Shown here: in pieces, positions 2,226-15,117 of the stretch
How the letters are laid out: every line of letters begins with the position of its first letter
Numbering within the stretch: the first letter of the stretch is position 1
Source: Candidatus Thorarchaeota archaeon
GTDB taxonomy: Archaea > Asgardarchaeota > Thorarchaeia > Thorarchaeales > Thorarchaeaceae
DNA: 17,786 nt
Reading direction: 5' to 3'
Assembly: GCA_048882485.1 (NCBI GenBank)
Contig: JBHLRP010000064.1
Location: 1-17,786, forward strand
The notes under the pieces: model-generated
What the model was told of the DNA's origin: nothing
Seen by the model: the letters and a program-made list of their open reading frames with translations, nothing else
Database searches by the model: none
Made by a program: the position numbers and the translations under genes

Positions 2226-3962
2226 CTAGGTGGAATCTTCTTCCGAAGTCTTGAACATGCGTTTCGTATCTATATATTCCAGTAGATTGGCAAGCACCAT
2301 GAGTATCTGCTTGGCATCATTGCTGAGGGTTCCATCTACCATCGCTTTATTATGAGCTTCTATCCAAATCTTCTCCCGAGCCTGCATCAAGGCGTCTTGT
2401 TCCTCACTGTCGATCTTGTCGTCTTCAATTGCCTTTTCAATGACTTCTCCATACGCTCTCACATCAAGCACAATCGTTTCGATGAGTTTCCCTTCCTCCT
2501 TGGTAATCACTTTGTCCTCCAATGCTGTTTCCCTCAACCGGCTCCATACATATTCAGTGATTGGGTCAAACGACCAACAGCATGGTAGACTCAATGGAAC
2601 TATCACTTGCGTATCCATAATCTTGCTTGGAAACACAGGACAGCAGACTTCAATTGCTTCAGCGCTGAACTCCATCACCGTCCTATGCCTGTAGATTGCC
2701 ATTGAAGTAAGGATTGATCCGACCAATCCATTTAGGCCCAGCACAATAACAGTTGTTTCCAATCCTAAATTCGCAATCAATATCCCCCCCATTGGGATTG
2801 AAAAAACGCCCACAATCATGGTCAACGTGGGAATGAGGGAATATATCGCATTGCGATTCTCATTTGGAATTACATCCAAGTAGAATCGCGGTTGCAGCAC
2901 ATCCACGAGATACCTTGGACTAAATGAGGCTGCAAAAGCCACAGCCATTATCGAAACAGACAACAAGACAAACGTCGATTGAGGAGGATTAGTCCTTAAG
3001 ATAATATACACTCCCAGGAAGAACACAATATCAGTGAGTAGAACTGCGGCAGCAAGCCATTTTCTAAGTCTTCGAATACGCTTTGAAATCATACCTGCTA
3101 GGCCGACTCCGATTCCCCCCAGAATGAAAATGAAAGCACGAAGCAATGCCGTCCCTGCATCTGATATGGCATAGGATGCATAGAATGGGAAGAGGATTAG
3201 GCCTCCCCAGATTGCCCAACCAGCTCCTGAAATCATGAGGCCCAACACCATCAATCTTAGTGTCTTACTCTGTAGGACAGTGGTTATTCCACCTCTCAGA
3301 TATCGCGAATATGCTCGAATGTTCAATCTCTCGCGTCTAAGGTCCTTGTGATCACGAATGAATCTCAATAGCAATAGAGAGACAGCAACCATGAGACTGC
3401 CCTGGATAATGAAGAGAAGCTCCCTCTCCATAAATACAAGGAGAAATCCTCCAAGAATGAACGACATCGCTGTCAGGATTTCACTGAACATTGTATACTT
3501 TCCATAGAATTGAGAGTATGTGCTGCGATTCCTGTCTTCTTTTGCATATAGTTTGTAGTTATTATCGAACCATGCAATATAGGTGCCTGATTCAAGGCTC
3601 ACTGCTATCGCCAGAAAAGCGAAAGCAACTGTGATGGTAAAGAGATCGAACGCTTGCGAGAGAACAATGAATCCGATACCAGAGGTGATTGCAGCCATGA
3701 ACAGGCTCCATCTTTGACCTATCCAATCGCCGATAGCACCCGATGGGTAGCTAAGAATTGCTTGGATTGCGAATTGAACTGCCAATACTAGCGATAATTC
3801 AGTGACAGTAATATACTCCAGGGCCTGCAGAATCAAGAACGTGTTCGTCAGCATCACAGCAAACCCGTACAGCAGGATTATGCCGGTTGCCTTCGAGATG
3901 AATTGCCTTGCTTCTGGGCTTAATTCGGTAATGCCCAAGGCTTTGTCATAAAAGCTGGCCAT
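2226..3962 (-). CDS. MFS transporter with a C-terminal cytoplasmic extension (CC-x19-CC plus TerB-like repeats)
   Basis: MFS motif A-like PSGAIGDWIGQRW, about 12 hydrophobic helices in residues 1-425, and DVIPNENRNAIYSL in the C-terminal half, followed by about 150 soluble residues. GGGAG upstream of ATG 3962. Confidence 0.9.
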   Translation of the reverse strand: MASFYDKALGITELSPEARQFISKATGIILLYGFAVMLTNTFLILQALEYITVTELSLVLAVQFAIQAILSYPSGAIGDWIGQRWSLFMAAITSGIGFIVLSQAFDLFTITVAFAFLAIAVSLESGTYIAWFDNNYKLYAKEDRNRSTYSQFYGKYTMFSEILTAMSFILGGFLLVFMERELLFIIQGSLMVAVSLLLLRFIRDHKDLRRERLNIRAYSRYLRGGITTVLQSKTLRLMVLGLMISGAGWAIWGGLILFPFYASYAISDAGTALLRAFIFILGGIGVGLAGMISKRIRRLRKWLAAAVLLTDIVFFLGVYIILRTNPPQSTFVLLSVSIMAVAFAASFSPRYLVDVLQPRFYLDVIPNENRNAIYSLIPTLTMIVGVFSIPMGGILIANLGLETTVIVLGLNGLVGSILTSMAIYRHRTVMEFSAEAIEVCCPVFPSKIMDTQVIVPLSLPCCWSFDPITEYVWSRLRETALEDKVITKEEGKLIETIVLDVRAYGEVIEKAIEDDKIDSEEQDALMQAREKIWIEAHNKAMVDGTLSNDAKQILMVLANLLEYIDTKRMFKTSEEDST

Positions 3963-4153
3963 GAATAATCAACTCCCGGCTTGAATGCCAAAAGCAAGTG
4001 GTTTCACATTTCTATTCTGGAGTGGTTTGAGAAGCTTCTTCCTTGGGGGCGCCAGCTGGATTTTCGAGTAGACCACAGATATTTCCATTCCCCCATGGAT
4101 TCGCGCAATTTCGAGATATTGTGATGTTGGCATCCTGCGGCGATTCTCCTTAA

Positions 4154-4408
4154 CTGCAGCTTCCAATCTCTGTAATATCGATAACGCTGTTATATTATTA
4201 TAGGATTCAACTGGTCATTCCACTGATGTTTGCCATCTTCGTAGTGTTTCACATTGTATATGTGGTACTAACACTTCGTTGGTGACATGCGCCTCAGAAG
4301 CACACAACAGGCTTGATTATAATCGGGATTCTGAACGTTCCACTAGCTGTCAAGATTTCAGGAATTTTGGCTCTGCTCGCAGGTATATTGGCTGAAGGGC
4401 AGCAGTAG
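4154..4408 (+). pseudogene. Decayed membrane-protein gene with an in-frame TGA
   Basis: One frame reads LQLPISVISITLLYYYRIQLVIPLMFAIFVVFHIVYVVLTLRW*(TGA 4283-4285)HAPQKHTTGLIIIGILNVPLAVKISGILALLAGILAEGQQ*(TAG 4406-4408). Helix-like hydrophobic runs on both sides of the stop; an upstream TAA at 4151-4153; a terminator directly follows. Confidence 0.6.
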
Positions 4409-4418
4409 CTACAACTGA

Positions 4419-4451
4419 ACCCCGAAACGGGGTCCTCCTTCCTTTTTTTTT
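4419..4451 (+). terminator. Hairpin plus T-tract terminator
   Basis: ACCCCG-AAA-CGGGGT (4419-4433), then CCTCCTTCC and T9 (4443-4451), 10 nt after TAG 4408. Confidence 0.7.
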
Positions 4452-4532
4452 ATGCTCAATCAATGAATAAAGTGTTCGGCAGGATTATATCCGACCTTAC
4501 CAATATGCTGTGTTTACTCAGGAGGTATATGT

Positions 4533-4817
4533 ATGCCAATCTTTGTAATTCTCGGAAAACTCACCTCTGAAGGCCTCAAGGCTATGAAAGAATCTCCGAA
4601 GCGTCTTAAAGGCGGTCATAAACTGGCCAAAGATGTTGGAGCTGAACTCAAAGCTGTATATTACACAATGGGACGCTACGATTATGTTGCTGTTGTGGAT
4701 GCACCATCTGTTGAAGCTGCAATGAAAGGCCTATTCATACTAGGCGCAGGGGGATTAGGGAAAACAGAAACTCTCGTGGGACTAACTGAAGATGAAGCCC
4801 TGAAGCTCGTTGCCTAA
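4533..4817 (+). CDS. GYD domain-containing protein
   Basis: 94 aa with YYTMGRYDYVAVVDAP and KTETL motifs. SD GGAGGT at 4521-4526 and TTATAT at 4485-4490. Confidence 0.92.
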   Translation: MPIFVILGKLTSEGLKAMKESPKRLKGGHKLAKDVGAELKAVYYTMGRYDYVAVVDAPSVEAAMKGLFILGAGGLGKTETLVGLTEDEALKLVA

Positions 4818-4877
4818 TTCCTAGGTAGATTCCAAACGCCAGCAAAGGCACGGACTAAGCTAGAACACTCTCTGTTT

Positions 4878-5282
4878 CTAGCCACCATATTCCCTTGTGT
4901 AGTGGTCAGGATCTTCTACAACTTCTAATTCGTTGCCATCAGGGTCCAAAAAAGTCGCCGATATACTCCCCCACGGCATTTTGGTTGGTTCTTGCGAAAA
5001 GACTACTCCCTGTTTCTTCAATCTGCTACTCAGTTCATAGATATCATCTGTATCCAAAACAACTCCTGTGTGCTTTGTCTCATAGCCTCTATCCTTACTT
5101 GCATGTAATCCAATTTTGGCAAGTGGCTCATCGGGTCCGACCTCAACATGGTTGAATGCTCTTGCATCTAAAGCGATAGGAAGGCCAAGTATGTTATGAT
5201 AGAAATCAATGGCCTTCTGTATATCTGATACTTCTATCATCGTCAGCCATAGCCGAGTTACTCTTCCGGAATGCGAATTCAT
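4878..5282 (-). CDS. VOC (glyoxalase/bleomycin resistance/dioxygenase) family protein
   Basis: VSDIQKAIDFYHNILGL and EPTKMPWG...FLDPDGNELEVVE motifs. Contains no cysteine. Confidence 0.92.
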   Translation of the reverse strand: MNSHSGRVTRLWLTMIEVSDIQKAIDFYHNILGLPIALDARAFNHVEVGPDEPLAKIGLHASKDRGYETKHTGVVLDTDDIYELSSRLKKQGVVFSQEPTKMPWGSISATFLDPDGNELEVVEDPDHYTREYGG

Positions 5283-5346
5283 CTAGCTCACTGATCAATC
5301 AAGAGAATAACATCCCTATCTTTTTGTCGATAATTCCGGAGCGATT

Positions 5347-6339
5347 CTATTCTTTTTCTCTCTCGCGGTTTTCGTTGTCCCTTCGCACACCAAGCAACTC
5401 CAGAAGGGTTTCTGCATCTTCCTCATCTCTCTGTAAAATCTTGGATACCTGAGTCGGTTGAGTCATCCTATCTGCTGCTTGTTTCATCCGCTCGAGAGTT
5501 TCAATCTCTTGTGTTGACATCTCAGGCCGCCAAGGTTCGGTCAGACGCATCGAGAGTTTCTCACATATGGGCGATTCAGGCCATGCACCCGGATCATACA
5601 GAATGTAATCTTCGAATTCTGTAGGCTTCTCCTGTATGCAGGCATGCACAGCTCTTTTGACATTTTCAGCCATCATTCCAAATGATGGTTCTTCTTCTCT
5701 GATCAGACTCACGATTTTAACCTGCTTACGGAATCTCTCAATTGCCTCGAGTGATAGGTTAGCAAGATAGGGCGTTGGTGCGCTTGCACCGATTATAGTT
5801 CTTCGTTTATCATTAGCAACTCCATTCTCAACGAGGCATTGAATTGCTTCAGCAGGTTTGTGTCCATGAGCTTCACGCCAACATAACACAATGAACCTGA
5901 TGTTAGGATTCGCGACTATGTTTGCTACAATCTTTTCAATGCCAAAATTCTCTGTCTGTAATGTCCCCGCAAGAGCTGTCCCTGCCTCGATCGCTGTCTT
6001 TACTAATCGTTCAAGCTCCGGTGGAATCTTCGTATCATCGGTATCTAGTATTGCAATGACAGCTACAGGCGAGTAGTCATTCCCTCGCAAGTAGCGGCCG
6101 TCTTCCGGCGGATACTCACTGGGTGGTTCCAACTTCAACATCTCATAGCCCGTTACGATAATAGCTTGGTCAGGGCATTTTATTGCGCAAGCACCACAAG
6201 CGCAGCATTCTTGTTCGTTTATAACCCGAGCAACTTTCTGAATATCTGTATCACTGAGAGACAGGATATTGGATGGACAAGCATCAACACAAGTCCCACA
6301 TCCCGAGCATCTTGCTTGGTTGATTGTAATAGAAACCAA
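5347..6339 (-). CDS. mtrA: 2[4Fe-4S] ferredoxin fused to an MtrA-like (tetrahydromethanopterin S-methyltransferase subunit A) corrinoid-binding domain, soluble
   Basis: CxxCxxCxxxCP at residues 11-22 and 45-56. MtrA signatures SPVAV, TENFGIEKIVANIVANPNIRFIVLC, GH (His160), IIGA..PYLANL...AIERFRKQV, DPGA. TTG start with GGTGGTGA SD. Charged C-terminus with no membrane anchor. The symbol refers to the domain only. Confidence 0.88.
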   Translation of the reverse strand: MVSITINQARCSGCGTCVDACPSNILSLSDTDIQKVARVINEQECCACGACAIKCPDQAIIVTGYEMLKLEPPSEYPPEDGRYLRGNDYSPVAVIAILDTDDTKIPPELERLVKTAIEAGTALAGTLQTENFGIEKIVANIVANPNIRFIVLCWREAHGHKPAEAIQCLVENGVANDKRRTIIGASAPTPYLANLSLEAIERFRKQVKIVSLIREEEPSFGMMAENVKRAVHACIQEKPTEFEDYILYDPGAWPESPICEKLSMRLTEPWRPEMSTQEIETLERMKQAADRMTQPTQVSKILQRDEEDAETLLELLGVRRDNENREREKE

Positions 6340-6392
6340 GTATCACCACCAGCTGAAAAACATGAATTGGATGAGCAAATTCACACAAGTAC

Positions 6393-7331
6393 TTACTCAT
6401 TTGATTTAGCAAAAAGATCTGTACTCAGATACCTCTCGCCAGTATCAGGAAGGACTGCAAGAATTCGATTGCCCTTTTCGTTTGCTTTAGCCCAATCAAG
6501 CGCAGCGGCAAGTGCCGCACCAGATGAAACTCCAGCAAAAATCCCTTCACGCCTTGCGAGAGCCCGTGTTGTTTCCGCAGCTGTTTGGTAGTTAACTGTA
6601 AGGATCTCGTCAATCACGCCCTGATCAAGGACGTCTGGCACAAATCCTGCCCCTATGCCTTGTATTCTATGTGGTCCCTTCTCCCCTCTTGACAGAACAG
6701 GTGATTCCTCAGGCTCAACTGCAACTATCCGAATTCTCGGTATTTCCTTCTTCAGAACCTTACCCACTCCGGTCACTGTTCCACCAGTTCCGACTCCAGA
6801 TACAAAGCAATCCAATATTCCTTCTGTGGCTTCTAGGATTTCCGCTGCAGTGGTTTCGATGTGGACCTGTGGATTTGCGGGGTTTACAAATTGCTGAGGC
6901 ATATAGAATTTTGAGGGCTCTTTTGTGACTATCTCAGTCGCTTTTGCTACTGCGCCTGCCATTCCTTCGCCTCCTGGTGTAAGTATGAGATTAGCCCCAA
7001 ATGCAAAAAGGATCCGTCTACGCTCGTCACTCATAGTATCGGGCATTACGAGTGTGATCTCATACCCCTTCGCGGCTGCAACCATCGCAAGCCCGATTCC
7101 AGTATTGCCGCTTGTCGGTTCTACAATTGTCATCCCTTTCTTGAGTAGCCCATCTTTCTCTGCAGCCTCAATCATTGATTTGCCAATTCGGTCTTTGACA
7201 CTTGCCATTGGATTGAAAGACTCGAGCTTGACTAGCAATTCACAGCCTGTGTCTTTGCCTATTCTTTGAAGGCGTACTATAGGTGTGTTTCCAATTAAGC
7301 TAACAATGGAATCATAGATTCTCTGAGTCAT
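6393..7331 (-). CDS. cysK: Cysteine synthase A (O-acetylserine sulfhydrylase)
   Basis: IGNTP, PLP lysine motif SVKDR, EPTSGNTG, GVGTGGT, HRIQGIGAGFVP, PDTGERYLST. ATGA overlap with the cysE stop. Confidence 0.97.
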   Translation of the reverse strand: MTQRIYDSIVSLIGNTPIVRLQRIGKDTGCELLVKLESFNPMASVKDRIGKSMIEAAEKDGLLKKGMTIVEPTSGNTGIGLAMVAAAKGYEITLVMPDTMSDERRRILFAFGANLILTPGGEGMAGAVAKATEIVTKEPSKFYMPQQFVNPANPQVHIETTAAEILEATEGILDCFVSGVGTGGTVTGVGKVLKKEIPRIRIVAVEPEESPVLSRGEKGPHRIQGIGAGFVPDVLDQGVIDEILTVNYQTAAETTRALARREGIFAGVSSGAALAAALDWAKANEKGNRILAVLPDTGERYLSTDLFAKSNE

Positions 7332-8125
7332 TGCTCTCCTTTCTCCTTCTCTACCTTCATGATAAGATTCTCCAGCCTCCTAATTCTGTCCTCCAAAGAC
7401 GTCAGCGCATCCTTAACTGGATCAGGCAACGCCGCATGGTCAAGATCGATTTTGGGGATTTTCTTTCCATTCCGTGCTACAATGCGACCTGGCACTCCGA
7501 CAACTACTGAATCATCAGGAATGTCTTCAGTCACAACTGCATTTGCCCCTATTCTCACTCTATTGCCTATTCTAACCGGTCCTAGTATCCTAGCTCCAGA
7601 GCCAATGACAACATCGTTGCCAACTGTAGGATGACGTTTTTCTCTGGTCATGGTGACTCCTCCAAGAGTCACACCTTGATAGATTGTAACATTATCTCCG
7701 ATTTCAGATGTTTCGCCGATTACTACGCCGCCTCCATGGTCTATGAAGAAATCTGACCCTATCTTCGCTCCGGGGTGAATTTCGATCTGAGTCACCATTC
7801 GATTCACATGTGAAAGAAACCTTGGCACATATGGTATCCCCAACTTGTGGAGGAAGTTAGCTATACGGTGGAGGAGTATTGCCTGTACTCCTGGATAAGA
7901 TGTGATGACCTCCATTATATTGATTGCAGCTGGGTCTTTTCTGAATGCGGCCGCTATGTCGCCTGTGAAGAGTTGGGTCATCATTAATAGCTCGTCAATG
8001 GCCGCTTCTGCATCAATTGATTCTCTCTCAACAACACCTAAACTTATCAGACAGCCTATGCAGCTCTCTCTTTCCTTTTCTGTAAGCACAGAGCCGCACT
8101 GTGGGCATTCTCTCTCAACCATCAT
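7328..8125 (-). CDS. cysE: Serine O-acetyltransferase with N-terminal CxxC-x11-CxxC extension
   Basis: DPAA, YPGVQA, IEIHPGAKIG, FFIDHGGGVVIGET, YQGVTLGG, KRHPT, hexapeptide repeats, and C-terminal LDH..LPDP. Translationally coupled to cysK. Confidence 0.96.
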   Translation of the reverse strand: MMVERECPQCGSVLTEKERESCIGCLISLGVVERESIDAEAAIDELLMMTQLFTGDIAAAFRKDPAAINIMEVITSYPGVQAILLHRIANFLHKLGIPYVPRFLSHVNRMVTQIEIHPGAKIGSDFFIDHGGGVVIGETSEIGDNVTIYQGVTLGGVTMTREKRHPTVGNDVVIGSGARILGPVRIGNRVRIGANAVVTEDIPDDSVVVGVPGRIVARNGKKIPKIDLDHAALPDPVKDALTSLEDRIRRLENLIMKVEKEKGEQ

Positions 8126-8141
8126 TCATCCTCACGGCCAT

Positions 8142-8184
8142 GTTGATAACAATGTTATACATCAAGCATTGAATTGCCTTAAAA
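8142..8184 (-). promoter_or_regulatory. Putative cysE-cysK promoter with palindromic operator
   Basis: TTTTAAG at 8184-8178 (minus strand). Palindrome ATAACA-a-TGTTAT at 8146-8158 sits at the expected transcription start and overlaps GTT-gat-AAC at 8142-8150. Confidence 0.5.
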
Positions 8185-8286
8185 CTAGTTGTTTTGGCAC
8201 TTGCTTGAGGACCTATCTGTGCTTTGGTTTGGTTAGTGCAGTAACTCTCAGGAAAGTAATCATCCAAATTCAGGGATTAAACAAAG

Positions 8287-8658
8287 CTACCAAATGCCAA
8301 ACACGCCTAAATCTCGCGCTTCTGCTATAACTGACCTCCATTTTTCCATATCAAGTTGCGATTGATTGGAAAGATGCGGACTCGAATTGTTAATGGTTCC
8401 TGTTGCCGTTGCATAGCAACCAACGCAGGTCAAATTGCACCTTGATGTTATACTCATTATAAGAACTGGCGGGATTCTTAGTTTCTTCGACCTTAGTCTT
8501 TCTCTAGTCTTTTCAGCTTGTAGATATGCACGGCCAAGACGCATCGCTGCACGAAGATATCTTGGGTGATGCAAAATCCAAGGCAGGAATGTTCTCGTAA
8601 GGTCAGGGTGGAGGTTGTCAAGGAATTTACGCAGGAATGTCTGTGCCATCTTCATCAA
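8287..8658 (-). pseudogene. Truncated radical SAM protein (N-terminal fragment)
   Basis: IPPVLIMSITSRCNLTCVGCY contains CxxxCxxC. The ORF stops at EARDLGVFGIW*, just before the expected GGEP motif, and no GGEP continuation is seen in any frame in the ~160 nt before cysE. Likely start ATG 8649. Confidence 0.8.
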
Positions 8659-8711
8659 GGTGTGTTACTCCAATAGTTCCTAACGCTGCGTAAGCTGCAA
8701 TCAAATACAAG

Positions 8712-8727
8712 AGATTTACATAAATCT
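8712..8727. promoter_or_regulatory. Palindromic operator overlapping the TATA-like box of the ArsR-family gene
   Basis: AGATTTA-ca-TAAATCT perfect 7-2-7 inverted repeat containing TTTACATA (8715-8722), about 25 nt upstream of ATG 8745, in the divergent intergenic region. Confidence 0.65.
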
Positions 8728-8744
8728 GACTTATCAAAGCCAGC

Positions 8745-9122
8745 ATGCCAGATAGGAGTGGAGAAAAGAAAACCGGAATCTCGCTTTGTGGCGGGATTTC
8801 TGATTCAGCTTGCTATGCCTCTGAGTATTCTGATCGGAAGAATGCTCTTGATGATTTCTGTTCGATAAGGAGGCGAATAGATACAGGAATATTCACGTCC
8901 GGTGTTAGACTAGGAATCCTCTTGCTGCTCCTCAAGCTTAGCTCTGCATGTGTTTGCGAAATGCAATACGCTCTTGATGAGCCCCGACAATCTCTGATTT
9001 CACATCATCTACGTGCGCTTAAGAAGAAAGGTTGGCTTCAGAGTGAGAAATTCCAGAAGTGGACCTTCTATAGCATTCCTGAGAATAGAAGAAAATCTCT
9101 TTCAGCCTTCCTAAAAGGCTAG
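8745..9122 (+). CDS. ArsR/SmtB family transcriptional regulator (CVC motif)
   Basis: RLGILLLL...ACVCEM...QSLISHHLRALKKKGWL...KWTFYS winged helix-turn-helix. Three extra Cys in the N-terminal arm. Confidence 0.9.
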   Translation: MPDRSGEKKTGISLCGGISDSACYASEYSDRKNALDDFCSIRRRIDTGIFTSGVRLGILLLLLKLSSACVCEMQYALDEPRQSLISHHLRALKKKGWLQSEKFQKWTFYSIPENRRKSLSAFLKG

Positions 9123-9197
9123 GCATTCGAGTAAACGATTTGCTTTGGAATCTGAATATCGCAAAGGTAATGAGCAATCAATTCTCATTCAATTAAT

Positions 9198-9779
9198 GTG
9201 CCTATGGTGAACTCTGCAGACATGAGGGTGAATAATCAGAAGAGTGATCTATACGGAGTGAGCCCTGTGATAATCGCGGAGGTTATGGCATTTGTGACAC
9301 TCTTTACTCCCTATGCAGTCATTCCAGCACATTGGGCATGGCTATTCCTCACAGATGTCTTCTATTCTCAGCCTCTGTTCTATTCACTTCTGTGGGTCTT
9401 CACACCAAGAATTCACGATAATCTTCTCGTCGCCTTCATTCACCCGGAAATACTGTGGTCTACCGGTCCCTATAGTCTGTTTAACATAGTATTTGCATTG
9501 AAGGTTGTTCGCTATTACCAAGGAAAGGCGAACAAGCCCTCAGTCATAAAATATGGACTAATCAGTCTGTTGATGCCTTCCATTCTACTGACATGTTTAC
9601 TCTCATTAGCATCATTTGACTTGGTTATTCTTGGTCTTGTCTGGCCAATTCCCATCCAATTCCTTGTTGGCCTCGCTCTACTTCATTTCGTGAGTGGACC
9701 AACAGCTGCACCAGAAGAGGAGGAAAGCATTAGGAAGGTTTCGCTTACAATGGAAGAGCTAGATGAAATGTATGAATAG
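9198..9779 (+). CDS. Hypothetical multi-pass membrane protein
   Basis: About five hydrophobic segments, VVRYYQGK loop, PIPIQFLVG and an acidic tail. Start uncertain (GTG 9198, ATG 9204 or ATG 9222). Confidence 0.75.
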   Translation: MPMVNSADMRVNNQKSDLYGVSPVIIAEVMAFVTLFTPYAVIPAHWAWLFLTDVFYSQPLFYSLLWVFTPRIHDNLLVAFIHPEILWSTGPYSLFNIVFALKVVRYYQGKANKPSVIKYGLISLLMPSILLTCLLSLASFDLVILGLVWPIPIQFLVGLALLHFVSGPTAAPEEEESIRKVSLTMEELDEMYE

Positions 9780-9873
9780 CCTTCTCCGCTAGGGCAAGAT
9801 ACTCTTCCACTAATCAAATGACTGTCCGGTAATGTAAAGAGGAAGTCATGTCCATCATGAGTGGGTGCCAACG

Positions 9874-10707
9874 ATGAAAACTGAGGAAGGAGAATATATC
9901 GGATACGACGGGAAGAAGATGTTCATGCGTGGATGGCTTCCTGATGTAGAGCCTCGCGCATTAGTGATTGGAATCCATGGACTTGGCTCTCATAGCGGCT
10001 TAATATCTTTCGTTGGTGAATTATATGCCAATAGAGAGTATGCATTCATGGCACCTGACTTGAGAGGGTTTGGTCATTATGATGGAATCAAGGGACATGT
10101 CGAGAGCTTTGGCGAGATAATAGAGGATGTGAACGGCTTCGTGGCCCAGATGAAGGACCGGTTTGACGGGTTGAAGACATTCATGCATGGTCATTCATTT
10201 GGTGGATTGGTCACTGTGCATTATGCTGTGAAGTATTCGGACCAACTGGATGGTATCTTAATTCCCTGTCCTGCTGTATCAGAGCGACTTGAAATGGGTA
10301 AAGGTACGAGAGCGATGGCTGGCCTATTGTCTAAGGTGAATGTTAAGAGGAAGTTCGATATGGGACTGAACCTAGACCTCATCTCCAGGAACCCTGAAGT
10401 AGTGAAGCGAAACAAGGAGGATCCATTGCGGATAACCACATGTACTCCCAGGTTTGGAGCTGAGGGTCTCAAGGCTAGGGAGGAGGGCTTCAATATGGCA
10501 AACAGGATAACACTTCCAGTCATACTCCAGCAGAGTGAAAACGATCTCATCCTGGTCCCTGAGAAGAATAGGGAGTTCTTCGACAATATCGCATCTGAAG
10601 ATAAGACCTTCAAGATGTATCCTGGTTTCTATCATGAACCCTTTGAAGATCCTGGCGCTGAGGAGTTCATTAGTGACATGTTCAGCTGGCTTGACGCTCA
10701 TCTCTAG
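9874..10707 (+). CDS. Alpha/beta hydrolase, lysophospholipase / monoacylglycerol lipase family
   Basis: IHGLGSH, DLRGFGH, nucleophile elbow GHSFGG, SEND acid and YHE histidine. ATG 9874 with GGGTG upstream is preferred to GTG 9865. Confidence 0.93.
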   Translation: MKTEEGEYIGYDGKKMFMRGWLPDVEPRALVIGIHGLGSHSGLISFVGELYANREYAFMAPDLRGFGHYDGIKGHVESFGEIIEDVNGFVAQMKDRFDGLKTFMHGHSFGGLVTVHYAVKYSDQLDGILIPCPAVSERLEMGKGTRAMAGLLSKVNVKRKFDMGLNLDLISRNPEVVKRNKEDPLRITTCTPRFGAEGLKAREEGFNMANRITLPVILQQSENDLILVPEKNREFFDNIASEDKTFKMYPGFYHEPFEDPGAEEFISDMFSWLDAHL

Positions 10708-10724
10708 TTCTGCTGGTGTACAGA

Positions 10725-12017
10725 CTACTTGTATTCGACTCTGACAAGATGTGAGCTGCAACTAATACATGGGTCATATGACCGCGCAATCATCTCGAAT
10801 TGAAGTTCAATGTTCTCAGTCTTCCCACTGGAGAGAAGCTCCTCGCCACTTTTGAGTATAAACGCTTCAATGTCATCAAGAAACATAGCAGTAGGAGTGA
10901 TATAATCTGCGTATGTGGTTTTGCCCTCCTTGATTTCGTAATAATGGATGAGAGTTCCTCTAGGCGCTTCTACCGCACCCATGCCAGTACCGCTGTTTTG
11001 CCTTGGCTTAGCTACCTCCGGCACCTCAATCTCAAACAGTTCATCGACTTTCTTAATCACTGACTCTATTGAGAATACTTGCTCAATCGCTTGGGCGTGG
11101 TTGTTGTATAGGGGATTTCGATGCCATCTCTCGTTATGGATCTTATCATACGCTTTCCTAGCCTCACCCTTTAGTCGATCCCCAAGAAGGAGTACACGCG
11201 CGAGCGCCCCCACTGAAAATGGCTGTTCCTTGTATTGACAGCGTTTGGCAAAGCTGTGACTTACGACACGTTCCTTTATTACATTCTTGTAGTCCTCAGC
11301 AGGATGCTCTAGCCCATCTGAGGTGATCAATACATCTCCGTAATAGTCATAACCATGATGTGGTGGCTTGCAGCACAGGAACTGAGTTTCTCTCTCCATA
11401 TGATCTGGAATCTCTAGTCCAGTCAGAATATCAATTGTATCGATGGCAAATGGGAGAAGCTCCTTTGCCTCAGCCTGTATCTCAAGAAGTGCATTCTTGT
11501 CTGGAACCCTACCAAACCCTCCAAGAATCGGATTTTCACCGTGGATCATCCTACCCCCCATCATTCTCATGATCTTATTGCCAAAGGCCTTCATCTGCAA
11601 AGCCTGTGTCACCAAGGGCCCATGGTTCTCAGCCATTGCAATTGCATTATCAAATCCTAAGAAATCTGGCAAGGCCAGGAAGTAGAGGTGGAGGCTATGG
11701 CTCTCAATCATCTCTCCATAATGCATAAAATGTCTGAAGAGGTTTGTAGCCTCAGGCACCTCGACTTCGAGAGCCTTCTCCAATGCGCGAAGACTCGCAT
11801 ACTTGTGAGAAAGATTGCATATTGCACATATTCTTGGTACAAGATTGAGATTCTCCTCCGGCGTCTTGCCAATCACAAGTGCTTCAAAGAGGCGCGGGCC
11901 CTCTAGAATTTGAACCTCGACATTTGCTATTTTATTATCTGAGATCTCAACTCGGATTCCACCATTACCCTCAACTCTTGCTAGAGGCTTAATGTTTATT
12001 TTACCGCTACTTGTCAT
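10725..12017 (-). CDS. hydA: Group 3b [NiFe] hydrogenase (sulfhydrogenase) large subunit alpha
   Basis: ARVEG, GPRLFE, L1 PRICAIC, EAPRGTLIHYY, ITPT, L2 DPCISCSSH plus a 7-aa C-terminal extension. ATG 12017 lies just after the delta stop. Confidence 0.95.
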   Translation of the reverse strand: MTSSGKINIKPLARVEGNGGIRVEISDNKIANVEVQILEGPRLFEALVIGKTPEENLNLVPRICAICNLSHKYASLRALEKALEVEVPEATNLFRHFMHYGEMIESHSLHLYFLALPDFLGFDNAIAMAENHGPLVTQALQMKAFGNKIMRMMGGRMIHGENPILGGFGRVPDKNALLEIQAEAKELLPFAIDTIDILTGLEIPDHMERETQFLCCKPPHHGYDYYGDVLITSDGLEHPAEDYKNVIKERVVSHSFAKRCQYKEQPFSVGALARVLLLGDRLKGEARKAYDKIHNERWHRNPLYNNHAQAIEQVFSIESVIKKVDELFEIEVPEVAKPRQNSGTGMGAVEAPRGTLIHYYEIKEGKTTYADYITPTAMFLDDIEAFILKSGEELLSSGKTENIELQFEMIARSYDPCISCSSHLVRVEYK

Positions 12018-12021
12018 AGTT

Positions 12022-12819
12022 TCATCCGTTCCTCTTTTTGATATCTTCAACATACTTCAGAATCTTCTGTCCCCCGAAGTTACGAATTCTTCGGATTACA
12101 TCTTCATATGATATTCCGAAGCTGGCCAAAAGTTTGAATAGCTCATTGAAGTTCCCGTCATTGTTCGGACCCCAGCAGCCCACACAAGGTTGTCCGTGGT
12201 TCGGGCATGCTGAATCACATCCTCCCATCGTCACAGGTCCAAGACAGAATTTCTTGTCAAGCAATAAGCACTTGTTCTCGTTGAGTTTGCACTCAAGGCA
12301 GACCGGAGTTGTGATGCCCTCTGGTTCGGCACCATGAATCAGCCTGCCAATTAGTGCCATAGTTTGGGGTTGGCTTATTGGGCAACCTGGTAGATAATAA
12401 TCTACAGTTATGATTTGGTCAATAGGAGTCGCCTCTATTGGTTCAGTGAGGAACTTCACATCACCATAGACCTTCTTAAGCCTCTCAGCAAAGCTCCCAT
12501 CTCTCGCAAACATCGCCTGAGGTCCACCGGCAACAGCACAGTTGCCTAACGCAACTACAACTTTAGCTCGGTTCCTGATTTCCTTGATATGCTCAATTTC
12601 CTCATCAGTGCTGATGCTTCCCTCAACAAAGGCAACATCCAATCCATTCTCGATTGGATTCGATGATGCCATCACAAAGGATCGGATATCTGTAGTTTCG
12701 AAGAGATTCAGAATTTGGTCTTCTGTGTGAATGATGATCAGCTGATCCCCTGCACAGCCAGTAAAGCCATAGATGCCTATCCTGGGCTTTAATGTCTGCT
12801 TCCTGTTCTTCCTAGACAT
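12022..12819 (-). CDS. hydD: Group 3b [NiFe] hydrogenase small subunit delta
   Basis: GCAGDQL, VEGSI, ALGNCA, LPGCP, VCLECK...CLGPVT..GC.S.CP....CVGCWG. Confidence 0.93.
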   Translation of the reverse strand: MSRKNRKQTLKPRIGIYGFTGCAGDQLIIIHTEDQILNLFETTDIRSFVMASSNPIENGLDVAFVEGSISTDEEIEHIKEIRNRAKVVVALGNCAVAGGPQAMFARDGSFAERLKKVYGDVKFLTEPIEATPIDQIITVDYYLPGCPISQPQTMALIGRLIHGAEPEGITTPVCLECKLNENKCLLLDKKFCLGPVTMGGCDSACPNHGQPCVGCWGPNNDGNFNELFKLLASFGISYEDVIRRIRNFGGQKILKYVEDIKKRNG

Positions 12820-12820
12820 C

Positions 12821-13672
12821 TTAAATCAACTCCCTGAAATGTAGGGTGTCCCAATAGGTGAATACTGGTCCATCCATGCAGGTGTAGATGTGGTCAAGGG
12901 CACAGTGGCCGCATTTTCCAATACCACATTTCATCCTGCGTTCAAGCGTCATCTGAATCATATTCTTGGGAATCTTCAGCTTGAGCAATTCTTTGATGAC
13001 AAACTTGTACATCACAGGAGGACCACATACTACTGCCGTTGTTGTCTTTGGGTCGATGTCTGGCAGCTTCTCGAATAGCTTTGTCACCACTCCTATGCTT
13101 TCTATCCACTCTCCCGTTGGATCTTCATCCACTGTATAGAAGCAATCTATGTCATCTCGATCTCTAATCTGGAAGAACTCGCTTCTGAAAAGGAACTCAT
13201 CCGGATTTCTTGCCCCGTAGAGGAAATGGAGTTCATCAAATTGGTCCCGGTTATCTAATACGAAGTATAGTATCGAGCGCAAAGGAATTACTCCAAGTCC
13301 CCCTGCAACTATGATGATATCACGTTCCACCATTGGTTCAAGCTTGAATCCATTTCCGTACGGGCCACGCACATAGACAATATCGTTGTCCTTCTTCTTG
13401 AACAGAGCATTAGTGACTTTGCCTGTCTTTCGTATGCCCATTTCCAAGATACCTGGTCTGCTGGGCGTAGAGGAAATAGAGAAGGGAGCTTCTCCCACGC
13501 CCGGAATTGAGAGCATTATGAACTGCCCTGGCTTATAATTAAAGGACATTGCTCTCTTCATGTCGGTGAAGCGAATCTGGAAGAAGCGATGATTCTTAAT
13601 GAGGTCATACTGCCTGACAATCCTTGCTGGTTCAGGCTGATATGGGTTTTCTACTTGTTCAATAGCAGTCAT
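12821..13672 (-). CDS. hydG: Group 3b hydrogenase gamma subunit (FAD/NAD(P)-binding, 2Fe-2S)
   Basis: PGQFIML, GEAPFSISS, RGPYGNGF, VAGGLG, CGPPVM, LERRMKCGIGKCGHC...CMDGPVF. ATG 13672 overlaps the beta stop (ATGA). Confidence 0.93.
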   Translation of the reverse strand: MTAIEQVENPYQPEPARIVRQYDLIKNHRFFQIRFTDMKRAMSFNYKPGQFIMLSIPGVGEAPFSISSTPSRPGILEMGIRKTGKVTNALFKKKDNDIVYVRGPYGNGFKLEPMVERDIIIVAGGLGVIPLRSILYFVLDNRDQFDELHFLYGARNPDEFLFRSEFFQIRDRDDIDCFYTVDEDPTGEWIESIGVVTKLFEKLPDIDPKTTTAVVCGPPVMYKFVIKELLKLKIPKNMIQMTLERRMKCGIGKCGHCALDHIYTCMDGPVFTYWDTLHFRELI

Positions 13673-14700
13673 TCTTTCGGCACCTCGCATTTCGTAAGCG
13701 CCTCAGAAACTGTAAGTACGTTAATATCAACAGGGCACGTGTCAACACATCGGCCGCATCCAACACAGCTAGGTTTCCCGTATTCATGAGCGAACGCCTT
13801 CAACTTGTGAGTATACCATAATTTCAGACGATTTGCACGCAAGCCTCTGAAGTTATGACCACCAGCAACTAGGCTATATTCCTCAAACATACAGCTATCC
13901 CAGATTCTCTCACGCCTTCCTGATATGCTACTAGAGATGTCCAAAACATCAGTAACATTGTAACAGTTGCACGTTGGGCAGACCATTGTGCATTGACCAC
14001 ATGACAGGCACTTCTCGGCAAAGTAGTCCCAGACTTCACTGTTATAGCTCAGCTCGATTATGTCTGGCATTGCAGGGAAGTTAAATGAGTGCTTGAACAT
14101 TCCATTGCGATTCTCCCGCCAGTCAATATAGCGTTGGATGTCCTCGTGGGTCACATTGTCGTCAAAGAAATCTTCTTTTTCCAAAACCATGTCATGACCT
14201 AGGCTTGAACCTATCCAAACCAGAAAGAACTCATCTAAGTCCACAAAGAATAGATCAAAACCCACTTCTACGATATCTGTACCTGTGGAGTTACAGAGAG
14301 CACTATCCGAAGGCAAGCAAGAGAAACCAATGATTGCAGTGTTATTCCTAAGTCTTGAATAATACGGGTCAGGTGGATTCTCAAGGAAAACCTCATCGAG
14401 CCTAAGGATTCCATGTATCTCACATGGATGCACACCTAATATGACCCGTTTCTCAATTATTGAATATTCAGGTCTAAACCCTTCCTCGTCGAATTCGAAC
14501 ATGCTGATTTTCTTGGGATGGAGGAGCTTCTTCAATGGGATTAGTGTGTTTTCACCATTTAGAACAAGCTCATTGAAATTCTTGATTGGGGCATAGGTGA
14601 CTACACCATGTATTCGCTTCGGTCCATATAGCTTCCCAAACTCATCAAGGCTCATTAAGAACTCCTGGAGAAAATGCGACTGCATTTTGAGTATGCGCAT
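13669..14700 (-). CDS. hydB: Group 3b hydrogenase beta subunit (4Fe-4S dicluster protein)
   Basis: GVHPCE, DPYY, CLSCGQCTMVCPTCNC, WDSC, GGHNFR, CVGCGRCVDTCP. ATG 14700 with AGGTGGT upstream. Confidence 0.93.
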   Translation of the reverse strand: MRILKMQSHFLQEFLMSLDEFGKLYGPKRIHGVVTYAPIKNFNELVLNGENTLIPLKKLLHPKKISMFEFDEEGFRPEYSIIEKRVILGVHPCEIHGILRLDEVFLENPPDPYYSRLRNNTAIIGFSCLPSDSALCNSTGTDIVEVGFDLFFVDLDEFFLVWIGSSLGHDMVLEKEDFFDDNVTHEDIQRYIDWRENRNGMFKHSFNFPAMPDIIELSYNSEVWDYFAEKCLSCGQCTMVCPTCNCYNVTDVLDISSSISGRRERIWDSCMFEEYSLVAGGHNFRGLRANRLKLWYTHKLKAFAHEYGKPSCVGCGRCVDTCPVDINVLTVSEALTKCEVPKE

Positions 14701-15117
14701 ACATACCACCTAACCCAAAACAGGCTTGAGTTACTCATCAGTAAACAGATCAAGACGATTGTGTGAAAGGACACTGGAAACTGAAAAGGATTAAGGTCTG
14801 CTCGATATTTCCTGTTTAAACCAGATGAACATAAGGCGGAATATTAGAGCAAAGATTCCATCTGGCGAAAAACCTAATGCGTTCGGCAACTGAAGAATTT
14901 AGGTTTCCCAAAAGGGGCTGCAACGCTTGATGCAAAGCACTCCCAACTCGGACTTCACAGAGCGCATAAGCCTATCTCTGGTACGGTGTGGTAAATTGGC
15001 TGCTTCTCATCGAATCATATTCCGCTATAGGAAACTCTAAACTTCTCACGACAAGGCGGGTTTTCTCTTATTTGTCCTGATGGAACTGTAACATCTGCTT
15101 CAAATCTCAGATGGTGA

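Follow-up and report, generated by a model that had tools for sequence, protein, structure and literature searches.

Gene organization and domain architecture

The window analyzed here (the whole 17,786-nucleotide stretch of contig JBHLRP010000064.1) carries on its minus strand an open reading frame at positions 5347 to 6339, encoding a 330-aa protein (P0001) in which a ferredoxin domain is fused to an MtrA-like domain (Fd-MtrA). The features of the gene are as follows.

5347..6339, minus strand: Fd-MtrA gene for P0001 (ferredoxin plus soluble MtrA-like, putatively cobamide-binding protein); TTG start at 6339-6337, stop at 5347-5349
6343..6350, minus strand: GGTGGTGA, a ribosome-binding-type motif 3 nt 5' of the Fd-MtrA TTG (direct reading)
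6142..6339, minus strand: N-terminal 2x[4Fe-4S] ferredoxin domain, residues 1-66 (Pfam, alignment, motifs)
5608..6141, minus strand: predicted MtrA-fold cobamide-binding core, residues 67-244 (Pfam, alignment, Foldseek)
5860..5862, minus strand: codon of His160, which corresponds to MtrA His84 and is the predicted lower axial ligand of cobalt (alignment)
5455..5607, minus strand: family-specific C-terminal extension, residues 245-295 (alignment; bacterial relatives match to residue ~292)
5380..5406, minus strand: tail motif LLELLGVRR, residues 312-320, within the charged tail (conserved, specific to the archaeal clade)

Aligned Fd-MtrA homologues have a methionine at the residue equivalent to the TTG start. 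The first-pass annotation had described two complete CxxCxxCxxxCP motifs N-terminal to an MtrA domain, and profile searches bear this out: two Pfam Fer4 matches (residues 4-60) cover the cluster motifs C11-x2-C14-x2-C17-x3-C21-P22 and C45-x2-C48-x2-C51-x3-C55-P56, and PF04208 (MtrA) matches residues 70-243 (E = 1.4e-39, 135.9 bits). The core retains Y83, T129-E130-N131, G133, N140, G159-H160 and P190-Y191-x2-N194, and is followed by an extension (LYDPGAWPE..IC..TEPW..., with a helix after it) that is missing in canonical MtrA. P0001 had also been described as soluble, with a charged tail in place of a membrane helix. The Kyte-Doolittle 19-residue mean peaks at 1.25, inside the ferredoxin domain, and by the same measure the C-terminal half contains no transmembrane helix, unlike canonical MtrA. 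The charged tail, however, is not featureless, as the consensus LLE[LF]LG[ILV][KR] at residues 312-320 is kept across the archaeal fused clade (alignment).

Predicted cobamide site and structural model

The proposal that His160 corresponds to the MtrA axial ligand held up in alignments, where it falls on His84 in chain 8q3v_A (MtrA of Methanothermobacter marburgensis) and on the GH of 5laa; His160 is conserved in 100% and E130 in 97% of 77 family members, in keeping with the His84 ligand and Glu54 relay of MtrA. Residues T129, E130, N131, G133, N140 and N194 coincide with the cobalamin contacts of 5LAA and are 95-100% conserved in the same 77 members (structures 5LAA, 5L8X and 8Q3V, and the roles of the MtrA contact residues, from PMC4915002). 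From these contact residues we infer that P0001 binds a cobamide, and because they are kept at this level across two domains of life, use of the cofactor is hard to dismiss.

A structure model of P0001 was of moderate confidence overall (pLDDT 73.9), with low values in the cofactor loops and 87-91 in the ferredoxin domain. In Foldseek searches, the modeled core matched 5l8x and 5laa (TM 0.85-0.88, 35-40% identity) and the ferredoxin domain matched PsaC, HgcB and FwdG-type ferredoxins. Complex prediction of residues 1-66 against residues 67-300 gave a score of 0.02 (mark, 0.32), a result that counts for neither side. Of the cysteines outside the cluster motifs, C234 is kept by 99% of family members, with Leu in its place in the canonical MtrA of the host genome, while C153 and C259 are conserved in just 53-58% of members; a three-cysteine As(III) site (C153, C234, C259) was therefore rejected as a family feature, C234 alone being conserved family-wide.

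A conserved family of soluble MtrA-like proteins

Over 90 homologues encoded in other assemblies (Thor-, Bathy- and Hadarchaeia) share this fusion; as these assemblies are independent, an assembly artifact is excluded and the fusion is genuine, as first claimed. P0001 is not the one-off that it had seemed, since it belongs to a large family that is highly conserved and has bacterial as well as archaeal members. Its core and C-terminal extension are ~50% identical to unfused proteins of ~230 aa from many anaerobic bacteria and archaea, and relatives are encoded in 352 species genomes. In a phylogenetic tree, the soluble MtrA-like family forms a compact clade at a branch length of 5.0 from the canonical MtrA of the host, with the fused members grouped in one subclade; P0001 has both the core and the extension and lies inside the clade (alignment, tree). 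A phmmer search against cluster representatives recovered the fused clade as one 50% cluster, the rest being mainly other MtrA-domain fusions.

Iron-sulfur modules accompany the family in more than one form. In a Dehalococcoidia relative (L043), the same core has been fused independently to a C-terminal PF04060 [4Fe-4S] domain and is followed by arsM-acr3, and small ferredoxin genes adjoin family members at six loci, some of these members being unfused. The majority of members have neither a fused nor an adjacent Fe-S protein. At one locus of Atabeyarchaeia-1 (L026, CP147779.1), a fused and an unfused member stand in tandem. The distribution of the family is patchy (8 of 301 Asgard genomes; 1 of 13 genomes of the same genus), like that of an accessory resistance gene. 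Our literature searches found no characterized Fer4-MtrA fusion and no report of MtrA-type proteins in ars operons. A metatranscriptome study of anoxic soils amended with arsenic confined its analysis to mtaB, mttB and similar genes (10.64898/2026.08.27.747368).

Arsenic genes around the family

Gene neighborhoods were compared across 81 related loci, counting genes within 4 kb and scoring ArsR, ArsP, ACR3, ArsE-like thioredoxin, ArsG-like proteins and ArsM as ars-type neighbors. At least one such neighbor was present at 39 of the 81 loci. The most frequent was ArsR (22 loci), followed by the ArsP_1 permease (18) and ACR3 (16; TIGR00832, 400 bits); DGC-domain proteins were found at 16 loci, ArsE-like thioredoxins at 12, ArsG-like proteins at 11, ArsM at 8 (NF008823, 359 bits) and thioredoxin-type ArsC at only 3. 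The density of core ars genes fell ~9-fold with distance, from 14.4 per 100 kb at 0-2 kb to 1.6 per 100 kb at 8-10 kb. Gene strings include ArsR>ArsM>ACR3>MtrA-like and, in fused Bathyarchaeia, ArsP>ArsR>Fd-MtrA. A family member is also found in the ars operon of a Methanosarcina (L088). A C(V/A)CE site is present in 15 of 25 ArsR proteins that neighbor the family, that of the window among them. Dithiol proteins of several kinds (DGC, GcvH-like, thioredoxin-like and CcdA/DsbD-like) abound in the operons. No recognizable ars neighbor was found at the other 42 loci, especially those of the Desulfobacterales clade. Neither MtrH nor any other pterin methyltransferase recurs beside the 81 loci, and no methyl-loading methyltransferase of the pterin or SAM type is a recurrent neighbor in the family operons, ArsM itself excepted, leaving no explanation of where a methyl group would come from or go. 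The first-pass annotation had suggested a general methyl shuttle; the family neighborhood is instead of the arsenic type and points to arsenic handling. The soluble MtrA-like proteins are an uncharacterized family of bacteria and archaea that recurs in arsenic-resistance operons.

In the window itself the arsenic link is weaker than across the family. The neighbors of Fd-MtrA are as follows.

4878..5282, minus strand: VOC/glyoxalase-fold protein, 134 aa, no cysteine; 64 nt 3' of the Fd-MtrA gene
6393..8125, minus strand: cysE (7328-8125) and cysK (6393-7331), directly upstream of Fd-MtrA with a 53-nt gap
8287..8658, minus strand: truncated radical SAM gene, 123 aa, CxxxCxxC kept; heads the same-strand run
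8745..9122, plus strand: ArsR/SmtB regulator with an As(III)-type CVC site (ACVCEM), divergent from the run that ends in Fd-MtrA and VOC

The CVC-type ArsR is the sole arsenic gene in the window, 2.4 kb from Fd-MtrA, and neither an arsenic transporter nor ArsM adjoins the Fd-MtrA gene there. This ArsR clusters with ArsR genes adjoining family members at 21 other loci; as a neighbor it is not conserved at other Thorarchaeota loci, and neither are cysE and cysK. A search of the window's promoter regions for a shared operator returned chance-level short repeats only. Within the Thorarchaeota clade (5 loci), the VOC protein alone is retained as a neighbor. It was rejected as an ArsI-type C-As lyase, having zero cysteines and scoring 27 bits against the ArsI/CadI cutoff of 116. 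Full-length radical SAM/SPASM genes adjoin fused relatives at three loci (L008, L020 and L021); their cluster is heterogeneous (AhbD/NirJ-like proteins, anaerobic sulfatase maturase and weak matches), and radical SAM was set aside as a conserved partner.

Host genome and comparison with known systems

The host is a Thorarchaeota-like Asgard archaeon. McrA, McrB, MtrD and MtrE were not found in its 90.5%-complete genome, in keeping with the earlier placement of P0001 outside methanogenesis; the organism is a non-methanogen. Profile searches likewise upheld the statement that the window holds no other mtr or methyltransferase gene. Elsewhere, however, the genome does encode such proteins: a 227-aa MtrA lies between two MtrH genes (contig C54) and a further MtrH forms a trio with RACo and a B12-binding protein (contig C10), so that each of three MtrH homologues has an adjacent corrinoid partner. 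A separate ars island (contig C13) comprises ArsM, thioredoxin, ACR3, DGC and GcvH, with no MtrA-like gene.

With MtrA, P0001 shares the Rossmann-type fold, the predicted His-Glu cobalt ligation and the nucleotide-tail contacts. It differs in the absence of a membrane anchor and of MtrB-H partners; in the added ferredoxin domain, C-terminal extension of ~50 residues and tail motif; in its long branch separate from the MtrA of the host; and in a family context of arsenic, not methanogenesis. It scores 124.1 bits against the MtrA equivalog TIGR01111 (below the cutoff of 249) and 89.8 bits against the MtxA-type methyltransferase model NF010654 (cutoff 279, not reached), and it barely passes NCBIfam NF002126, an unnamed MtrA subfamily of 186 positions (161.8 versus 161 bits, residues 67-268). 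Cytoplasmic MtrA homologues of methanogens are 60-97% identical to MtrA, whereas P0001 is only 35-40% identical to 5laa and 5l8x and, at 330 aa, carries two extra modules. Those homologues measure 170-180 aa (PMC4915002).

Corrinoid proteins with their own Fe-S clusters offer partial parallels. HgcA and HgcB, a corrinoid protein and a 2x[4Fe-4S] ferredoxin, methylate mercury, and the parallel drawn earlier between this pair and P0001 stands at the level of the cofactor set (one cobamide and two [4Fe-4S] clusters for reduction) and of a toxic metal(loid) context, but not as homology. The N-terminal domain of P0001 matches HgcB weakly (43.1 versus 99 bits; Foldseek match 9a0b_B) and scores 39.5 bits against the cutoff of 285 for HgcAB-like fusions; the corrinoid fold is of the MtrA and not the CFeSP type, with a His ligand in place of the Cys of HgcA and no membrane domain. 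CFeSP (AcsC/CdhE) of the Wood-Ljungdahl pathway also combines a methyl-carrying cobamide with a built-in [4Fe-4S] cluster for reductive reactivation, and the Dehalococcoidia relative bears the same PF04060 cluster domain. P0001 has a two-cluster bacterial-type ferredoxin instead, without homology to the CFeSP corrinoid domain, and the cobalt of CFeSP has no protein ligand. With RdhA and QueG the likeness ends at the cofactor set, as no match to their catalytic domains was found in Pfam or the PDB. Atabeyarchaeia-1 has been reported to encode two MtrA-like copies, modeled against 5L8X and of unclear biochemical activity, which we take to be the tandem pair noted above; the excerpted text of PMC11291895 considers a possible methyl-H4MPT role for Asgard MtrA-like proteins and mentions neither a ferredoxin fusion nor an arsenic neighborhood.

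Proposed function and alternatives

Because the family recurs in arsenic-resistance operons, we propose an arsenic-directed role. Our preferred reading, held tentatively and with slightly less than an even chance of being right, is that P0001 is a soluble MtrA-fold cobamide protein that is reactivated by its ferredoxin domain and uses its cobamide in a reaction with arsenic or a related metalloid, with methyl transfer favored. His160 would hold the cobalt, with Glu130 behind it, and the ferredoxin domain would supply the low-potential electrons that restore Co(I) from the inactive Co(II) state. That the Fe-S module feeds the cobalt is plausible, and fits the independent PF04060 fusion and the adjacent ferredoxin genes; the same need for electron input is seen in the classical B12-binding protein of the host genome, which has its own RACo activator. 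Recurrence in arsenic-resistance operons suggests arsenic or a related metalloid as the presumed substrate, and the putative chemistry would be cobalt-arsenic methyl transfer, either methylation of As(III) or methyl removal from methylarsenicals. The earlier terms “self-reactivating” and “methyl carrier” are best taken as presumptive descriptions of P0001. In the Thorarchaeota-like host, the gene would have left the ars island and now lies near the CVC-type ArsR, cysE-cysK and the VOC-fold protein. The review PMC13262295, with reference to Thomas 2011 and Wuerfel 2012, describes a side reaction of methanogens in which methylcobalamin and cob(I)alamin give rise to methylated arsenic and arsenic hydrides, and corrinoid proteins are suspected in anaerobic arsenic demethylation, the mechanism of which is unsolved (PMC10579292).

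P0001 could instead be a general soluble C1 methyl shuttle with no metalloid link, loaded by MtrH from methyl-H4MPT or methyl-H4F and kept active by its ferredoxin. MtrA-fold proteins are known solely as methyl carriers (PMC4915002), three MtrH homologues are present in the genome, the Thorarchaeota clade has no ars transporters beside the gene, and Asgard MtrA-like proteins have been given a methyl-transfer role of unclear kind (PMC11291895). Yet every MtrH is already paired with a corrinoid partner, be it the 227-aa MtrA or the B12-binding protein with RACo, pterin methyltransferases do not recur at any of the 81 loci, the family context is arsenic, and presence in 1 of 13 same-genus genomes is unlike a core C1 gene; we consider this reading unlikely. 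The absence of a methyl-loading enzyme from the operons would suit a Co(I) reductase of the kind seen in reductive dehalogenases and QueG, acting on an arsenic compound, for example to form volatile arsines or to cleave C-As bonds reductively. Such a role is also consistent with a cofactor set equal to that of B12 + 2x[4Fe-4S] reductases, with the scarcity of thioredoxin-type ArsC (3 of 81 loci), with the gain of an Fe-S module twice independently, and with metal(loid) hydrides reported from cob(I)alamin (Wuerfel 2012, as cited in PMC13262295). Against it, the MtrA fold, His-on ligation and the His-Glu relay are known from methyl transfer alone (PMC4915002), Pfam, PDB and Foldseek searches gave no homology to RdhA or QueG, and a family mostly lacking fused or adjacent Fe-S proteins is more easily reconciled with reactivation now and then than with a stoichiometric flow of electrons, which makes a reductase decidedly unlikely.

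There is also a slim chance that P0001 is not a working cobamide enzyme at all, being rather a thiol-based arsenic-binding or redox protein, a B12 sensor or store, or a protein recruited in this Thorarchaeota lineage to an unrelated role connected with VOC and cysteine synthesis. The near-invariant C234, replaced by Leu in the canonical MtrA of the genome, the abundance of dithiol proteins in the operons and a Thorarchaeota context unlike the rest of the family would be in line with this. Retention of all cobalamin-contact residues argues for the cofactor, however, and the variability of C153 and C259 and the lack of cysteine in the VOC neighbor argue against a thiol-based role.

Implications for arsenic cycling in anaerobes

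Returning to the preferred reading of a cobamide-dependent reaction on arsenic, the family context hints at a step in arsenic handling that is undescribed so far. To our knowledge, arsenic methylation is SAM-dependent (ArsM) and demethylation is oxygen-dependent (ArsI), and the methanogen sodium pump is the one system for which we know of biochemistry on MtrA-fold cobamide proteins. Here, the MtrA fold occurs with its own electron-input domain in a non-methanogen, within a family that is ~50% identical across bacteria and archaea and is found in arsenic operons. It is possible, though we regard it as doubtful, that Fd-MtrA and its unfused relatives form the core of a dedicated ArsR-controlled, cobamide-dependent pathway of arsenic methylation or demethylation in anaerobes. 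If so, the family would represent an analogue of HgcAB for arsenic, and possibly the missing enzyme of anaerobic methylarsenical demethylation or of methylcobalamin-dependent arsenic methylation. Demethylation of arsenicals by strict anaerobes is unsettled and bears on arsenic in rice (PMC10579292). This gap would be closed by an arsenic enzyme dependent on B12, which would also mirror mercury methylation by HgcAB, and the soluble MtrA-like family provides a concrete, expressible candidate.

Domain organization of Fd-MtrA

The ferredoxin-MtrA fusion (Fd-MtrA) and its conserved tail motif map as follows.

5347-6339, (-) strand: Fd-MtrA open reading frame, 330 aa
5380-5406, (-) strand: tail motif LLE[LF]LG[ILV][KR], residues 312-320, from comparison with homologue tails

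The start codon is TTG, with a GGTGGTGA motif ending three bases before it, and homologues carry Met at the same start position. Pfam assigned two Fer4 domains to residues 4-60 and MtrA (PF04208, E = 1.4e-39) to residues 70-243; both cluster motifs are complete (C11/14/17/21-P22 and C45/48/51/55-P56). A PDB sequence search aligned residues 67-247 to the MtrA structures 5LAA, 8Q3V and 5L8X, with His160 corresponding to His84, the MtrA cobalt ligand. Reading of the ORF, Pfam and the PDB alignment therefore bear out the two full Fe-S motifs and the MtrA domain with His160 described in the first-pass annotation. That annotation also saw a charged tail in place of a membrane helix, which agrees with the hydropathy profile (no 19-residue window of the whole protein approached membrane-helix values), and to which the short motif at residues 312-320 can be added. 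This motif may act as a docking peptide or form an amphipathic helix that binds membranes. Extended as LLE[LF]LG[ILV][KR]K, it is kept across the fused archaeal clade; the tails of unfused Bathyarchaeia and Brockarchaeota read F[LM]ELLFPK, those of Nitrososphaeria LLKLLKPQ, and bacterial family members have no tail motif. The linker from the last cluster cysteine to the N-terminal segment lining the nucleotide pocket comprises about ten residues and is strongly conserved.

Cobamide binding

Curated profile cutoffs ruled out Fd-MtrA as an mtrA equivalog (124 bits; cutoff, 249) or an MtxA-type protein (90 bits; cutoff, 279), and it barely passed the cutoff of the unnamed NCBIfam subfamily NF002126 (161.8 bits; cutoff, 161). 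In 5LAA, cobalamin is contacted by His84, Glu54, Thr53, Asn55, Gly57, Asn64, Tyr18 and the GAIPY-x-EN segment (Wagner et al., PMC4915002). The equivalents in Fd-MtrA are H160, E130, T129, N131, G133, N140, Y83 and G184-A185...P190-Y191-x2-N194, which are 94-100% conserved in 77 family members, a figure covering all but G184-A185. An AlphaFold model built from 24 homologues (pLDDT, 73.9; pTM, 0.71) was least confident in the cofactor loops, as expected because the cofactor is absent, and matched 5L8X/5LAA with TM scores of 0.85-0.88. Its N-domain matched two-cluster ferredoxins, HgcB among them, and none of the structural matches was a solved chain spanning both the ferredoxin and MtrA parts. 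Given the conserved contact residues and the match of the model to 5L8X/5LAA, cobamide binding is a prediction well supported by inference.

Source organism and role of the clusters

The window encodes an archaeal TBP, and the nearest homologues bear Thorarchaeota names. A search of the source genome (3.96 Mb, 90.5% complete) found no McrA, McrB, MtrD or MtrE, which upholds the earlier placement of the protein outside methanogenesis. The accompanying statement that no other mtr gene is present stands for the window and fails for the genome, where two corrinoid modules add MtrH and a 227-aa MtrA on contig C54 and MtrH on contig C10.

C54 (locus L094), 6161-9627: MTHFR-like protein, MtrH, 227-aa MtrA, MtrH, DUF2114
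C10 (locus L095), 3790-7080: MtrH, RACo-type ATP-dependent reductive activator, classical B12-binding protein

The classical B12-binding protein thus has its own activator, RACo, beside it, so corrinoid proteins in this organism do receive reductive reactivation. Corrinoid methyl carriers now and then oxidize to Co(II), at which point a low-potential electron is needed, a supply role ascribed to HgcB and to the cluster of CFeSP. The PF04060 [4Fe-4S] domain of CFeSP (CFeSP/RnfB type, as in the corrinoid iron-sulfur protein) is found also at the C terminus of an MtrA-like core from a Dehalococcoidia MAG (L043:73-942, + strand), with arsM and acr3 directly after it; here the family core has acquired an Fe-S module a second time, independently. 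Six loci have small ferredoxin genes no more than 4 kb from the family member, directly upstream of it in two (L056, unfused; L025, itself fused). Together, the PF04060 fusion, the nearby ferredoxin genes and the RACo pairing support the earlier proposal that the clusters of Fd-MtrA serve cobalt.

Distribution and phylogeny

Independent assemblies, among them those of Thorarchaeota, Bathyarchaeia and Hadarchaeales, hold >90 proteins with the fusion (54-76% identity), leaving no doubt that it is not an assembly artefact. Residues 67 to ∼292, comprising the MtrA core and a ∼50-residue extension absent from canonical MtrA, share ∼50% identity with unfused ∼230-aa proteins. Bacterial hosts of unfused relatives are Desulfobacterota, Acidobacteriota, Chloroflexota, Elusimicrobiota, Aerophobota, Bipolaricaulota, Armatimonadota and Nitrospinota, and archaeal hosts are Bathyarchaeia, Nitrososphaeria, Brockarchaeota, Methanosarcina, ANME-1 and Syntrophoarchaeum. 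A genome scan found relatives in 352 species-representative genomes, whose best 80 loci were retrieved.

In a maximum-likelihood tree the family was compact, and the source genome's canonical MtrA attached by a branch of 5.0 changes/site. The 14 fused sequences formed one subclade that includes two unfused Hadarchaeota sequences, so two changes are enough to explain the tree and the fusion may have had a single origin. The seven Thorarchaeota-type sequences formed one clade (SH-aLRT, 100%). Family members occur in only 8 of 301 Asgard genomes (E ≤ 1e-40) and only 1 of 13 from the same genus, the pattern of an accessory gene.

Other MtrA-domain architectures occur in the metagenome proteins P0130, P0160, P0165, P0158, P0192, P0229 and P0254. 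These are a TusA + MtrA-like fusion (48% identical, inside the family), MtrA joined to a domain resembling thymidylate synthase, and MtrA between a Cys-rich N-domain and PterinBD-DUF4346. Family members from Hydrothermarchaeota and Methanotrichaceae (L036:10220-11053 and L039:952-1857) carry a C-terminal GYF_2 domain.

Arsenic gene neighborhoods

ORFs were called at 81 non-redundant loci, neighbors within 4 kb were clustered by all-against-all BLASTP, and recurrent clusters were named by Pfam and NCBIfam.

Recurrent neighbors of family members (≤4 kb)
ArsR: 22 of 81 loci
PF03773 ArsP-type permease: 18 of 81 loci
ACR3 arsenite efflux (TIGR00832, 400 bits): 16 of 81 loci
DGC-domain proteins: 16 of 81 loci
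MTH895/ArsE-type thioredoxin-like proteins: 12 of 81 loci
CcdA/ArsG-like membrane proteins: 11 of 81 loci
ArsM (NF008823, 359 bits): 8 of 81 loci
DUF169: 7 of 81 loci
GcvH-like proteins: 6 of 81 loci
Small ferredoxins: 6 of 81 loci

At least one ars-type neighbor (ArsR, ArsP, ACR3, ArsE-like thioredoxin, ArsG-like or ArsM) was present at 39 of the 81 loci. As an internal control, the combined density of ArsR, ArsP, ACR3 and ArsM was 14.4/100 kb over the first 2 kb and dropped to 1.6 between 8 and 10 kb. Many loci are plain ars operons with a family member (L092, ArsR>ArsM>ACR3>MtrA-like; L045, ArsR>ACR3>Trx>ArsP>MtrA-like), and fused Bathyarchaeia (L009, L011, L020) show the order ArsP>ArsR>Fd-MtrA. 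C(V/A)CE, the motif with which classical ArsR binds As(III), occurs in 15 of the 25 ArsR neighbors.

Within the window the arsenic link is indirect. Fd-MtrA lies in a same-strand run of truncated radical SAM, cysE, cysK, Fd-MtrA and VOC genes (gaps of ∼160, -4, 53 and 64 nt), with an ArsR containing ACVCEM divergent from it. At other Thorarchaeota loci the upstream genes vary (a rhodanese-NIF3 fusion or an alpha/beta hydrolase), and VOC is the sole neighbor kept (five loci). An ArsI-type lyase identity for the VOC protein was rejected, as it has no cysteine and the profile search argued against it. Further features of the genome are as follows.

8287-8658, (-) strand: truncated radical SAM gene, 123 aa, CxxxCxxC retained, then 160 non-coding nt before cysE-cysK
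9198-9779, (+) strand: 193-aa ORF without Pfam match
10725-14709, (-) strand: four-gene NiFe hydrogenase cluster (large, Oxidored_q6 small, FAD/NAD + DHODB Fe-S and Fer4_22 subunits)
15118-17736, (-) strand: 872-aa ORF without Pfam match
Contig C13, 40000-54000 (L093; genes ∼2846-10946 in locus coordinates): arsenic island

The truncated gene may be a relic of a rearrangement that put cysE-cysK ahead of Fd-MtrA, and the hydrogenase resembles a group 3 (sulfhydrogenase-type) enzyme. The island encodes PadR, ArsM, a DHODH-like + Fer4 protein, Thioredoxin_3, a PF04060 protein, ACR3, a DGC-GcvH fusion and two DGC proteins, and no MtrA-like gene was found in it. Its PF04060 Fe-S protein (205 aa, immediately upstream of ACR3) may be another small Fe-S/corrinoid-type component.

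Proposed chemistry and alternatives

Our tentative reading, to which we give slightly less than an even chance, is that Fd-MtrA would be a cobamide protein, activated by its Fe-S clusters, that transfers methyl groups to or from arsenic. Methylcobalamin and cob(I)alamin are reported to methylate arsenic and to yield arsenic hydrides, as side chemistry of methanogens (PMC13262295). Anaerobic dimethylarsenate demethylation has been tied to methylotrophic methanogens and corrinoid proteins, the gene not being known (PMC10579292; 10.64898/2026.08.27.747368). The presence of a dedicated corrinoid protein in operons linked to ArsR would suit methyl transfer in either direction. That an ArsP-type permease is so often its neighbor would accord with export of arsenic once methylated; ACR3 as a neighbor would accord with demethylation to arsenite ahead of export. 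Characterized ArsP exports methylarsenite, although PF03773 is a broad family.

No methyl loader was found in the family's operons across the 81 neighborhoods, which keeps alive a model in which Fd-MtrA is purely a Co(I) reductase, quite unlikely as we judge it. That it serves as a general C1 methyl shuttle seems unlikely, and a non-cobamide or otherwise unrelated role is improbable.

The fold and cofactor logic are known from MtrA, CFeSP and HgcAB, and MtrA homologues of bacteria and non-methanogens were pointed out in 2016 (PMC4915002). A tandem fused and unfused pair in Atabeyarchaeia-1 (L026, CP147779.1) is evidently the two "MtrA-like" copies of unclear activity described for that genome in 2024 (PMC11291895). 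Our literature search, thin on subscription journals, found no published account of the ferredoxin fusion or the arsenic neighborhood. While the window itself shows only an indirect connection, the family-level arsenic lead is strong and testable.
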